Source of the DNA: Bacteroidota bacterium
Lineage (GTDB): Bacteria > Bacteroidota > Bacteroidia > Chitinophagales > Chitinophagaceae
Direction of reading: 5' to 3'
NCBI GenBank assembly: GCA_005883765.1
Contig: VBAQ01000155.1
Span: 2,512 to 26,511 of the forward strand
Length of the DNA stretch: 24,000 nucleotides
The number at the start of each line of letters is the position of its first letter. The first letter of the stretch is position 1. A program made the position numbers and the translations under genes. Positions 7,792 through 22,512 of this stretch are shown here, piece after piece. Below the pieces are notes generated by a model, which had not been told where the DNA came from, did not search any database, and saw only the letters and a program-made list of their open reading frames with translations.

Positions 7792-8157
7792 TCAAACGCA
7801 TACCTGAGCATGGTGTGTGGCATCGTTGTCAACAAACCATTTGTGGTTCGCCTGGTTTTGCTTTTGTAGTAAAATGGGTTTGATATTGAATCCTTTTTGA
7901 TAATCGACCAAATAGTCAACCACCTGCTGGCGACTCGGGTAACGCGGTACGTTGCTATCAAATTTTTTATAGGGCAAATTTGACAAACCCTTGTTGGTAT
8001 GCAAATGAAGGCGGTCGTAATGATTACGCCAGGGCGTAGCTACCTGGTCTTCTTTGTCAATGATAAGATATTCGATGTTCTTTTTTTGCAAAGTCGAAGC
8101 ACAAGCCAGGCCCGAGACGCTTGCTCCGATAATGAGAGTATTTGTTTCTTTCATCAT
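7792..8157 (-). pseudogene. Truncated N-terminal fragment of an FAD/NAD(P)-binding flavin monooxygenase-like oxidoreductase
   Basis: The 121-aa ORF starts with a dinucleotide-binding fold (LIIGASVSGLACA..IIDKE) followed by WRNHYDRLHLHT. That is typical of the first third of ~350-450-aa FMO/CzcO-like enzymes. It stops after ..HKWFVDNDATHHAQVCV, and no second nucleotide-binding motif follows. Confidence 0.45.
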
Positions 8158-11471: not shown

Positions 11472-12029
11472 AACCTTAGTAGAAAAATGGATACTTAGCG
11501 TCATTAGCTTATTACCTTATTTTGACCGTTTTTGGGCGGTGTAACGTATTTTGATAAAATCTCAAAAACTCCTCATACTCTTCTGCGAAACTTATTTTAC
11601 GATGATGTTCCGGCTGATTAAGTATGTATTTACAGACCCGATCAACATCTGATTTTGATACAGAAAAGGCAGATGCAGTTTCTTGCCAGGCAAATCGACT
11701 GTTGCACAGCTTATTTTGATTTATGAATTTTTGAGAACTTTCTGCAACTGTGGAGGCAAGATTTTCTTCTGATATTTTGGGAGAGCGGGATACGAGGAAG
11801 TGGACATGCTCAGGATTTGCATAAATGGCATATAATTTAGAATCATTATTATTCACTACGCCAGTAATATATTTTTCAATTCTTTCGCGATGGTTCTCTA
11901 AAATAAGAGGTAAGCGATGCAGTGTTGTAAATATAAAATGAGTATATAAATTGTTGTATTCTATTTTCATTACAAATGAGAATAAGGTAATAAGGTTGAA
12001 TCAAGGTACAATTTTTTTCTACTAAGGTT
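11472..12029 (-). mobile_element. 558-bp unit: Y1 transposase-like gene bracketed by perfect inverted repeats (REPtron/IS-like)
   Basis: The outer 16-bp perfect IR is aaccttagtagaaaaa (11472-11487) against tttttctactaaggtt (12014-12029). The inner 14-bp perfect IR is cttattaccttatt (11508-11521) against aataaggtaataag (11981-11994). Extra aaggt/acctt copies occur on both sides. No target-site duplication was seen. Confidence 0.6.
11512..11970 (-). CDS. IS200/IS605-type Y1 (HUH) transposase-like protein, RAYT-like
   Basis: 152 aa. Y1_Tnp pattern: YTHFIFTT..R.P.I, HUH motif PEHVHFLV, FAWQE..SAFSVS, and catalytic Tyr context CKYILNQPEHHRK. Confidence 0.8.
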   Translation of the reverse strand: MKIEYNNLYTHFIFTTLHRLPLILENHRERIEKYITGVVNNNDSKLYAIYANPEHVHFLVSRSPKISEENLASTVAESSQKFINQNKLCNSRFAWQETASAFSVSKSDVDRVCKYILNQPEHHRKISFAEEYEEFLRFYQNTLHRPKTVKIR

Positions 12030-13453: not shown

Positions 13454-13533
13454 CTTGATGTTTAAAAATAAAAAGTACTAATTATTTAGATTCTTTTCCC
13501 GCAAATTTTTGATTGAACGCTGGACTCGTGATT

Positions 13534-14192
13534 AAGTCCGAAGGACTTTAACCTGCCTGCCGGGAAGCAAGTATCATTGACGGTGAGCGTAGCGCACGGG
13601 AAGTAAAGCGAAGAATGCCACAACCCCGAAGGGGTTGAATATCGGTAACCGTGAGTGTAAACTCACGCGAGGAGAAATAACGAATGGCACAATCCCGAAG
13701 GGGTTGAATATCGGTAACCGTGAGTGTAAACTCACACGAGGAGAAATAACGAATGGCACAACCCCGAGGGGGTTGAATATCGGTAACCGTGAGTGTAAAC
13801 TCACACGAGGAAAAATAACGAATGGCACAGTCCCGAAGGGGTTGAATATCGGTAACCGTGAGTGTAAACTCACAGAAGGGAAGTGAAGAATGGCACAACC
13901 CCAAAGGGGTTGAATATCGTTAACCGTGAGTGTAAACTCACGCGAGGAGAAATAACGAATGGCACAATCCCGAAGGGGTTGAATATTGGTAACCATGAGT
14001 GTAAACTCACGGAAGGGAAGTGAGGAAGGCCACAACCCCGAAGGGGTTGAATATCGTTAACCGTGAGTGTAAACTCACGCGAGGAGAAATAACGAATGGC
14101 ACAACCCCGAAGGGGTTGAATATCGGTAACCGTGAGTGTAAACTCACGGAAGGGAAGTGAGGAAGGCCACAACCCCGAAGGGGTTGAATATT
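13534..14192. repeat. Tandem array of ~10 units of a 68/69-bp double-hairpin module
   Basis: Hairpin A (aacccc-gaa-ggggtt and variants) starts at 13622, 13691, 13760, 13829, 13897, 13966, 14034, 14103 and 14171, with spacing 69,69,69,68,69,68,69,68. Hairpin B (ccgtgagt-gtaa-actcacgg) lies between successive A copies (8 copies). The linker has two forms: cgaggagaaataacgaatggcac, and ggaagggaagtgaggaaggccac. A degenerate unit at 13534-13621 has A-like aagtcc-gaa-ggactt and B-like ggtgagc-gta-gcgcac. Confidence 0.9.
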
Positions 14193-14224
14193 GCTACAAC
14201 ACAATGAACCGTTCGGGTCATGCC

Positions 14225-14278
14225 TGATTAGCCTCTGATAAGATCAGAGGCTAATCACAGTAAAGCCCTTGGGGCTTT
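14225..14278 (-). terminator. Two stem-loops just downstream of the permease stop (possible terminator / 3-prime stabiliser)
   Basis: A perfect 15-bp stem, tgattagcctctgat (14225-14239) against atcagaggctaatca (14243-14257), has a 3-nt loop. A 7-bp stem, aaagccc/gggcttt (14262-14278), sits next to it. No clear U-tract follows on the minus strand, so intrinsic-terminator function is uncertain. Confidence 0.35.
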
Positions 14279-14301
14279 CACCTCCATTCAGCTTCAAACT
14301 A

Positions 14302-18049: not shown

Positions 18050-20269
18050 ATGATTTCAACACCCAGATACCTTGTTCTTCTCGTTTACCTGCTTGCTTTT
18101 AAACCTTTAATGGCCCAGGCGGTTGACCCTGACCCTGTCAGGGACCTGAAGCCTCCAAAGAACCGTGAGCTATTTCATGATTTTGTAGATAAGCAACAAA
18201 AAGAGATCTTAAGATCAGATGGTAAGGCCGATAATGAATTCCGGCCTTCGTCGGACGAAGAAATAAATTTTATTCTAACAAAAGCAGTCACCACGAACGT
18301 TGATTGGGTTCAGTATCGTATAGAAAAAGATACCAGTTTAAACTCGCAGGCCAAGATAAAATATCTTCGAGGCCTCGAAAACGTTCTGAAATATTTCAAC
18401 AATAACTGGCGGCGGGGAAATGTTGGTACGGCTCAACTGCCTGCGATCATTGATGAATACGAAAATTGCATGAGGGCCGATATCGCGAATGCCAGTATCG
18501 AAACCATCATCGATCACCAGCCTTATGATGTGGGAATGAATCTTATTAGCGCTGGGATCTTTGATAAAAATGCAGGATACAGGAACTCTCAATATATTTT
18601 ACTAAAAAAATATTGTGCCAGGTATCCCGATCAAACTTTCTTAAAACTCAGAAGCAACACAGATGTTTCGTTTCTTGATAGTCTTATAAAGGTGGCTGGC
18701 TACCGCGACCCGGGCCAGTTGTACAACTATGCCGCTGCCAACGACAGACTGGGAGCCGCGATCCGTAGAATTGACGATCCTCTTATCAGTGCCGTTTCAA
18801 AAATGGCAACCAGCAACAGTGGGCGCTGGTATTTTCCTTTTTTGGATAACATCATGAAAGGCAAGATGAGCATCAGTGAGATTGACGCTGTGAAGGATGA
18901 TTCACTAAAATATTACCGGCTGCTGGTGAGGACACATCTTGATTATCTGGAAAGGGCACAGAATAAAGACACCGCCTACGGCTATAAAGAACTGGAAAAA
19001 CGGATTGAAACCAAGGCGAGAGACATTTTTGTAAACACGATCAATGCCCTGCATGAGGTGGATAATCTCGCGGTACGATTTAAGATCATTCAGCCTTTAA
19101 CCGCCGAGGAACTCTACTACCTTGCCGTAACAACAGATGGCATCATATACACTTCCAGTTTCGTAAAAGGTGTTTATCCATTGATGATGACAAGGGCCAA
19201 TCAGCATGGTGATTCATTACTAATGAATGTAAAGTTTGACAGGTACCGCAAGTTCATCAAAATGTGTGCGGGCTATAATACGCTGAGCAATTTTCTGAAC
19301 ACTTTTCAGGCGAAGAAAAATAATGACACGGAAAGCGACGCGGAAAAGCTGATGAGAGCATTTGTCGGAAAGCTTGAAGAATCGGGCGGCCTTGAGGATG
19401 GCGTGGATGTGGCAGATTCTTATGCAAGTATTGCTGAAACAATCAAGCCTCTGGCAGAGAAGATGCTTTTGAATGTAAAAGCAAATTACGAAAGGAACCT
19501 TACGAGCAACAATAAACGGGGCGTGGTCATGTACAATTTGTTGTACAAGCTTTTTTTATCGGCCGACACGAATAATCATATCGATCTTTCAAAGGAATTT
19601 GGAATACCTCCTGTGTACAATGTTCCTTTTAAAGCATTATCAAATGATACCGGTCGCGTAGTGATGCAGGTTTTTTTCTATGGGGATAAGGATGGAAAAA
19701 CAATTTTCCAGGGATTTAAGAGAATGTTTGATCCCAGGCTCTGGAGGATAACCAGCACCCAAAATTGGATCGCGATAAATTCCACGAAAGGCAGACCCGT
19801 TTCTATTTACGCAAACTTGCCTTTACCCGAGGAAGATGACCAGGATAAAAATGCGCAGGATGCATTAGACACGTTTTTATTACGAAACAATCTTTACCCA
19901 ACTGTAGTGATACACAGAGGTCATAGCTATAATGCTCCGTACACGATTGCACAGATTCTTCCCTCGGCAAAAATTGTTTTTATGGGTTCATGTGGCGGCT
20001 ATTATTTGATCCATGACATATTAAAACACTCGCCCGATGCACACATCATCACTTCCAAGCAAATTGGGAAGACGACGGTGAACCAGCCATTTTTCAATCT
20101 GTTAATGGAAAAAGTACGAACCGGGAATAATATTGACTGGATTCCTTTTTGGGAAGAATTGGAGAAAAAAGTGAAAGTAGAAGGGTTTGAGGATTATATA
20201 CCTCCATACAAAAACCTCGGCGCGATTTTCATCAAGGCCTATAAAAGAGCAATGGGGGATGAGGACTAG
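18050..20269 (+). CDS. Secreted protein of unknown function (~739 aa) with possible C-terminal His/Cys dyad
   Basis: A long ORF with no family I can recognise. The start is chosen at the ATG at 18050 because it gives the signal peptide MISTPRYLVLLVYLLAFKPLMAQA. The ORF-track start at 17936 adds 38 non-hydrophobic residues. The C-terminal ~200 aa alternates predicted strand-like segments and contains TVVIHRGHSY..(~20 aa)..KIVFMGSCGGY. Confidence 0.6.
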   Translation: MISTPRYLVLLVYLLAFKPLMAQAVDPDPVRDLKPPKNRELFHDFVDKQQKEILRSDGKADNEFRPSSDEEINFILTKAVTTNVDWVQYRIEKDTSLNSQAKIKYLRGLENVLKYFNNNWRRGNVGTAQLPAIIDEYENCMRADIANASIETIIDHQPYDVGMNLISAGIFDKNAGYRNSQYILLKKYCARYPDQTFLKLRSNTDVSFLDSLIKVAGYRDPGQLYNYAAANDRLGAAIRRIDDPLISAVSKMATSNSGRWYFPFLDNIMKGKMSISEIDAVKDDSLKYYRLLVRTHLDYLERAQNKDTAYGYKELEKRIETKARDIFVNTINALHEVDNLAVRFKIIQPLTAEELYYLAVTTDGIIYTSSFVKGVYPLMMTRANQHGDSLLMNVKFDRYRKFIKMCAGYNTLSNFLNTFQAKKNNDTESDAEKLMRAFVGKLEESGGLEDGVDVADSYASIAETIKPLAEKMLLNVKANYERNLTSNNKRGVVMYNLLYKLFLSADTNNHIDLSKEFGIPPVYNVPFKALSNDTGRVVMQVFFYGDKDGKTIFQGFKRMFDPRLWRITSTQNWIAINSTKGRPVSIYANLPLPEEDDQDKNAQDALDTFLLRNNLYPTVVIHRGHSYNAPYTIAQILPSAKIVFMGSCGGYYLIHDILKHSPDAHIITSKQIGKTTVNQPFFNLLMEKVRTGNNIDWIPFWEELEKKVKVEGFEDYIPPYKNLGAIFIKAYKRAMGDED

Positions 20270-20336
20270 TCGGGAGTCCGGAGTCAAAAGTCGGGAGTCG
20301 GGAGTCCGGAGTCAAAAGTCAAAGTCGGGAGTCGGG
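20268..20336. repeat. Heptanucleotide tandem repeat AGTCNNN x10
   Basis: Units run agtcggg agtccgg agtcaaa agtcggg agtcggg agtccgg agtcaaa agtcaa agtcggg agtcggg. The array begins within the stop codon of the upstream gene. Confidence 0.85.
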
Positions 20337-20379
20337 AGCTAAGAGTTATGAGTGGTTTCTTTCAATTTTTGGCCTTTAG

Positions 20380-22352: not shown

Positions 22353-22512
22353 CTTGCCGCGAGTTCTTGGTCATTGGACCTTATGTAGTGCGTTATTGTA
22401 GCGCAAGTATTGCCGTAGAGTTTTCAACCAAATAACGAGCAACAAGCGACCAAAAACCAGTAACAGCAACCAGAAACCAGTAGCGGAAACAAGCAACTTT
22501 TCCCCTCAAACT

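Follow-up and report, generated by a model that had tools for sequence, protein, structure and literature searches.

Between the permease and ligase genes of a putative amine-catabolism operon in a Bacteroidota bacterium of the family Chitinophagaceae, we analyzed a tandem array of a 68/69-bp unit, which occupies positions 13534–14196 of a stretch of 24,000 nucleotides (hereafter the window; contig VBAQ01000155.1, positions 2,512 to 26,511 of the forward strand). On balance, we interpret this array as a cluster of a two-hairpin module that resembles repetitive extragenic palindromic (REP) sequences and bacterial interspersed mosaic elements (BIMEs) and that belongs to an apparently undescribed family. 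Related arrays found elsewhere suggest that a selfish repeat landed in an insertion-prone gap of the operon. The likeness to REP/BIME clusters had already been proposed in a first-pass annotation made from the sequence alone, and they are still the best architectural analogue, with the module now placed in a wider family of tandem two-hairpin repeats.

The first-pass annotation had described about ten units of 68/69 bp. This period was recovered by a gap-free direct-repeat search, which gave unit-to-unit spacings of 69, 69, 69, 68, 69 and 68 bp, while the count had to be refined to eight complete units, to which a degenerate one and another with just the first hairpin are added. Tandem Repeats Finder reported the span 13613–14191 both with a period of 69 bp (8.4 copies, 87% matches) and with a period of 137 bp (4.3 copies, 93% matches). 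The strings CCCCGAAGGGGTTGAATAT (first hairpin and flank) and CGTGAGTGTAAACTCACG (second hairpin) occur nine and eight times, respectively, all within the array, compared with about 0.01 copies expected by chance in the window. Folding of a single unit yielded two strong stem-loops, one with a 7-bp stem and a GAA loop and the other with a 7–8-bp stem and a GTAA loop; on either strand, the fold energies of the units as DNA lie between -14 and -16 kcal/mol, with z values of about -5 to -6. The two linker forms noted before, A (CGAGGAGAAATAAC, 69 bp) and B (GAAGGGAAGTGAG, 68 bp), follow each other in the unit order AAABABAB on the plus strand, after which comes the unit with the first hairpin only. 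The higher-order duplicate of 137 bp was confirmed as well, with 133/137 identical positions between 13897–14033 and 14034–14170. All array units are arranged head to tail on one strand, and the sole inverted one is a diverged module at the permease end (Table 1).

The architecture of this unit is not restricted to the window. Because gene callers sometimes translate such arrays, protein databases were searched with the open frames of the array, and the matches were translated arrays labelled 'hypothetical proteins'. The contigs concerned, like all comparison loci, are referred to by labels of the type L086. Read on the minus strand of the window, the order common to the family is a hairpin of 7–8 bp, a conserved linker, a CCCC-TTC/TAC-GGGG hairpin and about 20 variable bases, and the length of the tandem unit is 66–69 bp across unrelated contigs. 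The first hairpin of the family has an 8-bp stem and a 3-nt loop of the T(G/T)C type (CCAGGCAC-TGC-GTGCCTGG, CCCCAGGT-TKC-ACCTGGGG or CCGCGGAT-TGC-ATCCGCGG). The AT-rich linker follows the consensus (G)G-[CT]TA[CTG][CT]-N-ATATT and takes the form GGTTACCGATATT in the window, GGTTACCAATATT and GGCTAGCAATATT in L088, and GGCTATTCATATT in L086 and L089. Besides this common architecture, the window and L086 have 22 identical bases in common (ATATTCAACCCCTTCGGGGTTG).

In addition, we built a covariance model from the module core and scanned it over 906 kb, which resulted in 97 matches with E < 1, every unit of the window among them. Off the window locus, isolated modules were matched in L065, L010 and L061 and weaker ones in L057 and L054, while dozens of matches fell at several loci of the L086/L089/L091 group and 36 further matches with E < 0.001 in L109 and L110. 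Several matched loci per 16–20 kb were seen in L086, L089, L091 and L110. In L110 (9784–11243), an array lies inside a type III CRISPR-Cas gene cluster with Cas10 and RAMP genes on both sides, and in L109 (2466–3322) two arrays stand head to head in opposite orientations. Some units of L086 (9850–10400) and L089 (10040–10440) are extended to 92/93 bp by a hairpin insert of about 26 nt (TATCTCGCGTAGCGAGTTACTGCGTT) that splits the conserved linker and that resembles the 'small dispersed repeats' reported in Nostoc, with which it may be identical. On the contigs L086, L089, L090, L091, L109 and L110, tandem repeats of heptamers are numerous, and the genes include those for XisH/XisI, CHAT, caspase-like and COR/Roc proteins. 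These gene neighbours and repeats of the XisH/XisI-bearing contigs recall filamentous cyanobacteria or Beggiatoaceae. The cyanobacterial HIP1 octamer GCGATCGC is absent in about 88 kb of these six contigs, and the hosts of the L086-type contigs may not be typical cyanobacteria.

Both stems of the module covary. As counted on a model-fitted alignment, 12/15 base pairs change on both sides (135 cells), and 88.7% of the cells are paired, compared with 76% after shuffling and 32–55% with slid partners. Differing stem sequences are also plain in the raw, unaligned units; hairpin 1, for instance, is found as CAACCCC/GGGGTTG, GCCCC/GGGGC, ACCCC/GGGGT, GTCCC/GGGAC and AATCCC/GGGATT. The non-Watson-Crick cells comprise 22 G-U and 32 A-C pairs (A-C being G-U on the opposite strand), so that no strand is preferred. 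Within the window array, the variants of hairpin 1 favour the plus strand and those of hairpin 2 the minus strand. Relative to the genes beside them, arrays of the family point either way: the main array of L086 is antisense to both of its neighbours and a second cluster on the same contig is sense. A scan of the window array revealed no promoter- or terminator-like signal recurring in each unit. Altogether, the missing strand preference, the mixed orientations, the head-to-head arrays of L109 and the lack of promoter or terminator signals per unit argue against a single functional RNA strand and fit a DNA-level element or hairpins of single-stranded DNA. As a separate candidate, a sigma-70-like promoter in each unit (TTGAAT-17-TAAACT) was rejected, as it matched at 8/12 positions, under the scan threshold, and was not found in the L088 units; promoters of Bacteroidota differ from the sigma-70-like type.

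These data bear on the possibility that the array is a functional RNA, either as part of the operon or stand-alone. It could, for example, stabilise or insulate messages as an intercistronic element, serve as a platform for processing, titrate an RNA-binding protein through the GGA-rich linkers of the plus strand, or be an array of sRNA genes like NsiR1 of Anabaena. Such a role would agree with the sense orientation of the array between two co-directional genes, with the covarying stems, with the fold of the whole spacer, which is better than that of shuffles on both strands (z = -10 and -11), and with features of the plus strand, where the GUAA loop is of the GNRA type and the linkers are rich in purines and contain GGA. 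We nevertheless regard a functional RNA as unlikely, given the G-U/A-C counts, the opposite strand bias of the two hairpins, the family members in both orientations and the missing per-unit signals. In addition, no Rfam family was matched: scans of the window, L086, L005 and L065 returned nothing at gathering score, and with E up to 10 there were just chance matches of 13–17 bits. Moreover, most relatives do not have the element in the gap, which measures only about 42 bp.

The lack of strand bias would equally suit a DNA-level role as an array of double-stranded binding sites upstream of the ligase gene, recognized by the adjacent OmpR-type regulator, by a nucleoid protein or by gyrase as at BIME-2. 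A histidine kinase and OmpR-type response regulator pair indeed adjoins the permease gene, and palindromes spaced at 68/69 bp, including the quasi-palindrome CGGTAACCG, are located just upstream of the ligase leader. However, from one array to another the stems retain their pairing but have entirely different sequences, which argues for hairpins and not for a fixed operator. Furthermore, the loop of 3 nt in the closest relative, L005, compared with 4 nt in the window, would shift the half-site spacing, and relatives with the same regulators do not carry the array. Binding sites of this kind are therefore very unlikely in our view. The linker was also considered as an IHF site and rejected, as it shows two mismatches to WATCAANNNNTTR when judged by eye.

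The array is real and no assembly artefact, since the same locus with the array is present in five other assemblies (L001–L004 and L085), and some of the six, which derive from different samples, show private single-nucleotide polymorphisms inside the array. L001 and L002 are ENA contigs encoding a ligase protein identical to that of the window; the alignment of L001 with the window is gap-free over 12.8 kb, and L002 is shorter by one unit and shows private substitutions towards the end of the array, in the last units. L003, L004 and L085 are soil contigs of the array locus from JGI, with only three full units in L004. Besides the JGI soils, the source samples are ERZ27293280 and ERZ27315254. 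In assemblies with both array ends present, about 3, 7 or 8 units were counted, but these copy numbers are not secure and only indicative, because every assembly of the locus is based on short reads.

Short reads, together with a 137-bp period close to an assembler k-mer of 141, are what could be cited for an artefact. Other trivial explanations were weighed along with it. As held by the first-pass annotation, the array is no CRISPR: the repetition extends over the entire unit of 68/69 bp, the linker has just two forms, unique spacers are missing, and no cas genes or Cas domains are present among the window genes. Integron attC sites are long imperfect palindromes of 57–141 bp with R''/L''-L'/R' boxes (RYYYAAC ... 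GTTRRRY), served by the IntI integrase. An attC-like AAC...GTT core flanks hairpin 1 of the unit, but only this hairpin; an attC array was rejected, as the unit consists of two separate hairpins instead of one long imperfect palindrome with L boxes, and the window genes do not include an integrase. Open frames of up to 153 aa in the array could speak for a repetitive coding gene. Yet the alternation of 68 and 69 bp breaks the frame every 137 bp, and stop codons occur in two of the three plus-strand phases and in one of the three minus-strand phases, so that a protein-coding array was rejected as well. The earlier remark that every reading frame is open thus applies to the remaining phases only. 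We consider this whole group of explanations, an artefact, a CRISPR, an attC array or a repetitive coding gene, to be extremely improbable.

The position of the array between the permease and ligase genes, both on the minus strand, was borne out by the family assignments (Table 1); the ligase additionally matches the NCBIfam models GlnA and GGputSyn, each under its cut-off. Downstream, past the ligase, follow a Y1_Tnp gene, an iron alcohol dehydrogenase gene and a fusion of peptidase C26 with aldehyde dehydrogenase. From their predicted functions, the neighbouring genes look like a gamma-glutamylation pathway for amine catabolism. For comparison, we used 80 ligase loci from reference genomes of Chitinophagaceae or other Bacteroidota, in which the best ligase is 90% identical at the amino acid level. 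The permease-ligase pair is conserved in most of these loci with a usual gap of about 42 bp, compared with a spacer of 848 bp in the window. In many other lineages (L010, L018, L023, L036, L039, L040, L047, L053, L058, L063), the gap is occupied by unrelated inserts, many of which arose independently. These include about 990 bp with a long antisense open reading frame in L018, a 75-bp repeat in five tandem copies in L058 (4974–5347), a 97-bp repeat in two copies in L023 (1333–1537) and, in some lineages, small PD-(D/E)XK genes (GxxExxY-type) flanked by blocks of CACAAAG/CTTTGTG heptamer inverted repeats. Because many lineages hold other insertions between the permease stop codon and the ligase leader, the gap is an insertion hotspot and the array is one more occupant of it; its size within an operon, which had been called unusual, appears less odd in this light. 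All insertions, including the array, are located upstream of the 42-bp leader, which is always kept and which is conserved between the window and insertion-free relatives (L006, L009, L013, L016).

The closest relative, L005 (90% identical amino acids), has a spacer of 271 bp with a single module, composed of CGTGAGT-TGC-ACTCACG, then CTATTATATA and then AAGTCCTTCGGCC. Its first stem is identical to the hairpin-2 stem of the window units and sits at the same place in the gap, and the counterpart of its second hairpin is the decayed unit at the ligase-proximal end of the window array. These matches show that the array grew from a module that was already present in the common ancestor with L005.

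Such an origin could also be that of a local minisatellite (variable number tandem repeat, VNTR). According to this explanation, slippage during replication or unequal crossing-over amplified a pre-existing intergenic hairpin pair, which may have stabilised the 3' end of the permease message or terminated it, without mobility or a sequence-specific protein, and the likeness to other arrays would reflect convergence on stable GC hairpins. The single-copy homologue in L005, the restriction of the exact unit to one locus, the 137-bp higher-order repeat together with the copy-number differences between strains, and the unrelated tandem repeats in the same gap of L058 and L023 are all in line with it. 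Convergence, however, leaves the common non-hairpin linker (GGTTACCRATATT, GGCTAGCAATATT, GGCTATTCATATT) unexplained. The common hairpin order and the 66–69-bp unit in unrelated contexts, the 22-nt identity with L086, and a hairpin 1 that differs in the units from the ancestral local AAGTCC..GGACTT also argue against a local minisatellite, which we judge to be rather unlikely.

As to public genomes, the exact unit was seen at the array locus only, and it is the related architecture that recurs in other contigs. The unit pattern (linker and hairpin 2) had no match in the GTDB representatives, one genome per species for 185,579 species, and a similar pattern matched two contigs in JGI metagenomes, both of the array locus. 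No further copies were found with an nhmmer profile of the unit in 84 loci, and two unit patterns gave no match in viral contigs. The first-pass annotation could not place the repeat in any described family, and neither could we: besides the empty Rfam scan, nothing was found when the hairpin and linker strings were sought in the literature.

REP-type repeats are linked to REP-associated tyrosine transposases (RAYTs), and a RAYT-like Y1 gene 1.6 kb from the array had been pointed out in the first-pass annotation, with the remark that its flanking repeats are different. This gene is located about 1.56 kb from the array and is under the NCBIfam IS200 cut-off. Because its nested inverted repeats (AACCTTAGTAGAAAAA, AACCTTATTACCTTATT) are indeed unrelated to the array, it is probably not the partner of the array, and we found no evidence for a link between the two. 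In L009 (7460–7660), where the ligase gene is likewise followed by the alcohol dehydrogenase gene, both ends of the Y1 element are present between the two, at the site that it has in the window, with the Y1 gene deleted internally, and L005 is without the element.

A different candidate comes from L087, where the array starts about 40 bp from the start of a divergent gene, of which the contig end leaves the first 17 residues (MSTYTQIIYQIVFSTKD). These match the N-termini (MPNTYTQIYIQIVFAVKGR...) of a very large RayT-like Y1 family of Bacteroidota, the 'TYTQ' family, with 7518 homologues, some of them named RayT by JGI. When a chimeric query of the L087 N-terminus and Y1 residues of L054 was used, the L087 protein was not among the 120 matches listed. 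RayT-like genes occupy fixed positions in the chromosome, such as one upstream of a gene for topoisomerase IV (DNA_topoisoIV domain), and hairpin repeats of their own flank those in L016 (1440–2300), L054 (5070–6060), L092, L098, L102 and L103. These hairpins are lineage-specific (e.g. CCGTTCC-GTCA-GGAACGG and TTGCTCC-TTA-GGAGCAA), and the repeats in L092, L098, L102 and L103 carry TTGTAG tags. Short tandem arrays also flank RayT-like genes, with units of 45–49 bp in 3.4–3.5 copies in L098 and a similar array visible in L102. A GTAG tag is present in the window only at the edge of the array, in TTGTAGCAATATT, and the units of L088 carry CTAGCAATATT. Scanning 17 RayT-like loci with the covariance model of the module yielded no match with E < 0.2, and the flanks of these loci carry other repeat types. 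Such an outcome would follow from a separate repeat type for every RayT, and the link between the array and a RayT stays a putative one.

Several observations weigh against a REP/BIME-like cluster. The exact unit was seen at one locus only, so that nothing points to dispersal in high copy number within the host, and matches of the covariance model are rare across about 800 kb of Chitinophagaceae DNA. The hairpins are in direct orientation and not in the inverted pairs typical of REPINs (REP doublets forming hairpins). The likeness across lineages is short, with 22 identical bases and the common architecture, and the covariation counts depend on the model-fitted alignment. In the conserved linker, [GTC]TA[GCT]C-R-ATATT, the tags TTAC, CTAT and CTAG are more frequent than GTAG. 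Regarding a transposase, the inverted repeats around the Y1 gene of the window are unrelated to the array, the RayT-like gene of L087 is represented by 17 residues at a contig end, and no Y1 gene lies within 7–10 kb of the arrays in L086, L089, L091, L109 and L110. Membership in REP proper would imply many dispersed copies in the host genome and a cognate RAYT; we call the array REP/BIME-like only and hold this assignment with moderate confidence.

Table 1 Features of the array locus in the window and arrays of the same family on other contigs.
Feature	Position	Strand	Description
Eight full units	13613..14161	-	On the minus strand: linker GTTACCGATATT, hairpin 1 (CAACCCC-TTC-GGGGTTG), variable linker (21-22 nt, pyrimidine-rich, form A or B), hairpin 2 (CGTGAGT-TTAC-ACTCACG); covariance-model matches on the minus strand, E 5e-14 to 7e-11
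Partial unit, permease-proximal end	14162..14199	-	Consists of hairpin 1 (14170-14186) without hairpin 2; on the minus strand, a GTAG-bearing variant of the conserved linker, TTGTAGCAATATT (14199-14187), comes before it; covariance-model match 14170-14196, E = 8.8e-6
Degenerate unit, ligase-proximal end	13534..13612	-	Hairpin AAGTCC-GAA-GGACTT at 13534-13548, decayed hairpin 2 at 13581-13599 and about 22 nt of extra sequence; counterpart of the single-copy module in L005
Diverged inverted module	14225..14282	+	Directly past the permease stop codon; hairpin with 15-bp stem (14225-14257), linker CTAATCACAGTA, hairpin AAAGCCC-TTG-GGGCTTT (14262-14278); covariance-model match 14232-14282, plus strand, E = 1.4e-5; also found as inverted repeat
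Imperfect hairpin	14204..14221	.	ATGAACCG-TTC-GGGTCAT; has the array on one side and the inverted module on the other
Ethanolamine permease, 435 aa	14302..15609	-	Pfam AA_permease_2; NCBIfam TIGR00908, 440.9 bits (cut-off 381.75)
Glutamine-synthetase-like ligase, gamma-glutamyl-amine type, 452 aa	12095..13453	-	Pfam Gln-synt_C
Ancestral AT-rich leader, about 42 bp	13454..13495	-	AAATAATTAGTACTTTTTATTTTTAAAC; before the ligase start codon
Y1 element	11472..12029	-	Divergent Y1 (IS200-like) gene (11512-11970) in nested inverted repeats: outer AACCTTAGTAGAAAAA at 12029-12014 and 11487-11472, inner AACCTTATTACCTTATT
Array of L088			Period 68 bp, 11.4 copies; just past a gene of unknown function
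Array of L087			Upstream of a sugar dehydrogenase gene
Arrays of L086, L089, L091, L109 and L110			Periods 65-67 bp; neighbours: XisH/XisI, CHAT, caspase-like, COR/Roc and type III CRISPR-Cas genes

REPs are defined as imperfect palindromes of about 20–40 nt with many dispersed extragenic copies in a genome, a GTAG-type tag and a cognate RAYT flanked by the same repeats. The module shares the hairpin feature, with two stable hairpins per unit that are kept by compensatory changes. As in the REP, BIME and REPIN systems with their RAYTs (E. coli BIME-2, SBW25), we observed short extragenic hairpin palindromes, at the foot of which a conserved short motif may represent the tag. Similar to BIMEs, they form ordered tandem clusters in which two hairpin types and two linker forms alternate, and they are found in intergenic gaps of operons with variable copy number. 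One array of the family, in L087, is located beside a RayT-like gene start (17 residues on the contig). As a precedent, tandem arrays of two different REP types (GI–GIII) have been described in P. fluorescens SBW25 (PMC3116915). The REP of N. punctiforme, gttgggtttcgttcctcaacccaac (supplement of PMC3116915), was compared with the module and discarded as unrelated. In contrast to REPs, which form inverted pairs, the two hairpins of the module are unrelated in sequence and follow in direct order, its tag is mostly TTAC, CTAT or CTAG instead of GTAG, and its unit length is fixed at 66–69 bp across distant hosts. The REPIN arrangement of two inverted REPs as one long hairpin is not seen in the window array.

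Other repeat systems resemble the array in single aspects. The NIMEs (neisserial intergenic mosaic elements) of Neisseria consist of dRS3 repeats flanking RS modules, and pneumococcal BOX elements follow the scheme boxA-boxB(n)-boxC. In both, as in the array with its hairpin 1, a constant short inverted repeat punctuates interchangeable modules, and internal modules are amplified in tandem in intergenic regions; however, there is no sequence relation, the phyla differ, and no phage-integration role or terminal modules of the boxA/boxC type were seen. Mycobacterial interspersed repetitive unit (MIRU) VNTRs are tandem repeats of 40–100 bp between operon genes with small overlapping frames that couple translation. 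The array likewise is a tandem repeat of tens of bp between co-directional operon genes, with a copy number that varies between strains (here in short-read assemblies), but translational coupling is excluded because of the 68/69-bp alternation and the stop codons, and MIRUs do not contain two strong hairpins. Miniature elements derived from IS200/IS605, such as the PATE type, have subterminal hairpins at their left and right ends with adjacent cleavage sites and are mobilised as single strands by TnpA. By analogy, the layout of the module, with conserved hairpins and linker, a free interior and TTAC in the linker, would be compatible with such elements.

A further parallel is the TAACTGA heptamer repeat, which is common to Beggiatoaceae, Cyanobacteria and a few Bacteroidetes and was described as a 7-nt direct repeat without hairpins and with a proposed role in translation control (PMC4679880). 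It has no sequence relation to the two-hairpin module. Both are non-coding, intergenic and patchily distributed over Bacteroidetes and filamentous, XisH/XisI-carrying bacteria, which suggests horizontal spread.

Apart from the array, the window contains two further tandem repeats, namely ten copies of the heptamer AGTCGGG at 20268–20338 (also readable with a 28-bp period), at the end of a gene of 777 aa without Pfam match, and a 20-bp repeat in 2.8 copies at 22425–22482, upstream of the ATP synthase A gene. An open reading frame of 121 aa (7792–8157), also called in L001 and L002, encodes no more than the NAD-binding N-terminal portion of a pyridine nucleotide-disulphide oxidoreductase and may be a truncated gene.

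Returning to a REP/BIME-like cluster, the history of the array could be outlined in three steps. Homology with L005 places a single module in the permease-ligase gap of the common ancestor. In the lineage of the window, this module would then have been amplified to an array, the size of which would drift by unequal recombination or slippage, since the 137-bp higher-order repeat and the 3, 7 or 8 units among strains point to such a process. Spread to unrelated loci and taxa would finally imply mobility. Most plausibly, the hairpins and the adjacent conserved tag would serve as substrate, for recognition and cleavage, of a RayT-type Y1 HUH transposase encoded elsewhere. The effect at the locus is probably passive: about 20 stable sense-strand hairpins without U-tracts might act as 3'-exonuclease barriers or processing sites, and hairpins in read-through transcripts may partly uncouple the permease and ligase messages, with the ligase keeping its ancestral 42-bp leader.

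A more far-reaching possibility, which we regard as doubtful, is that the module represents a discrete, horizontally spreading mobile element of unit length, common to Bacteroidota and the distant XisH/XisI-bearing filamentous lineage and inserted head to tail, beside copies already present, by a RayT-type Y1 transposase. Each unit would then recreate its own target in the conserved linker, and arrays would be built by transposition together with recombination. If true, the module would be among the smallest tandem-forming transposable units known.

REP/BIME-type repeats and domesticated transposases are well studied in Proteobacteria and hardly in Bacteroidota. From the locus described here, a two-hairpin module could be defined, the unit length of which is fixed, and with the covariance model of this module, relatives are recovered in bacteria that differ widely. 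In practice, caution is advised with gene callers, as they annotate such arrays as 'hypothetical proteins'. A RayT of the L087 type would be a candidate for a repeat-transposase pair, and the natural alleles with about 3, 7 and 8 units in one operon would allow a direct test of the effect of the array on the expression of neighbouring genes.

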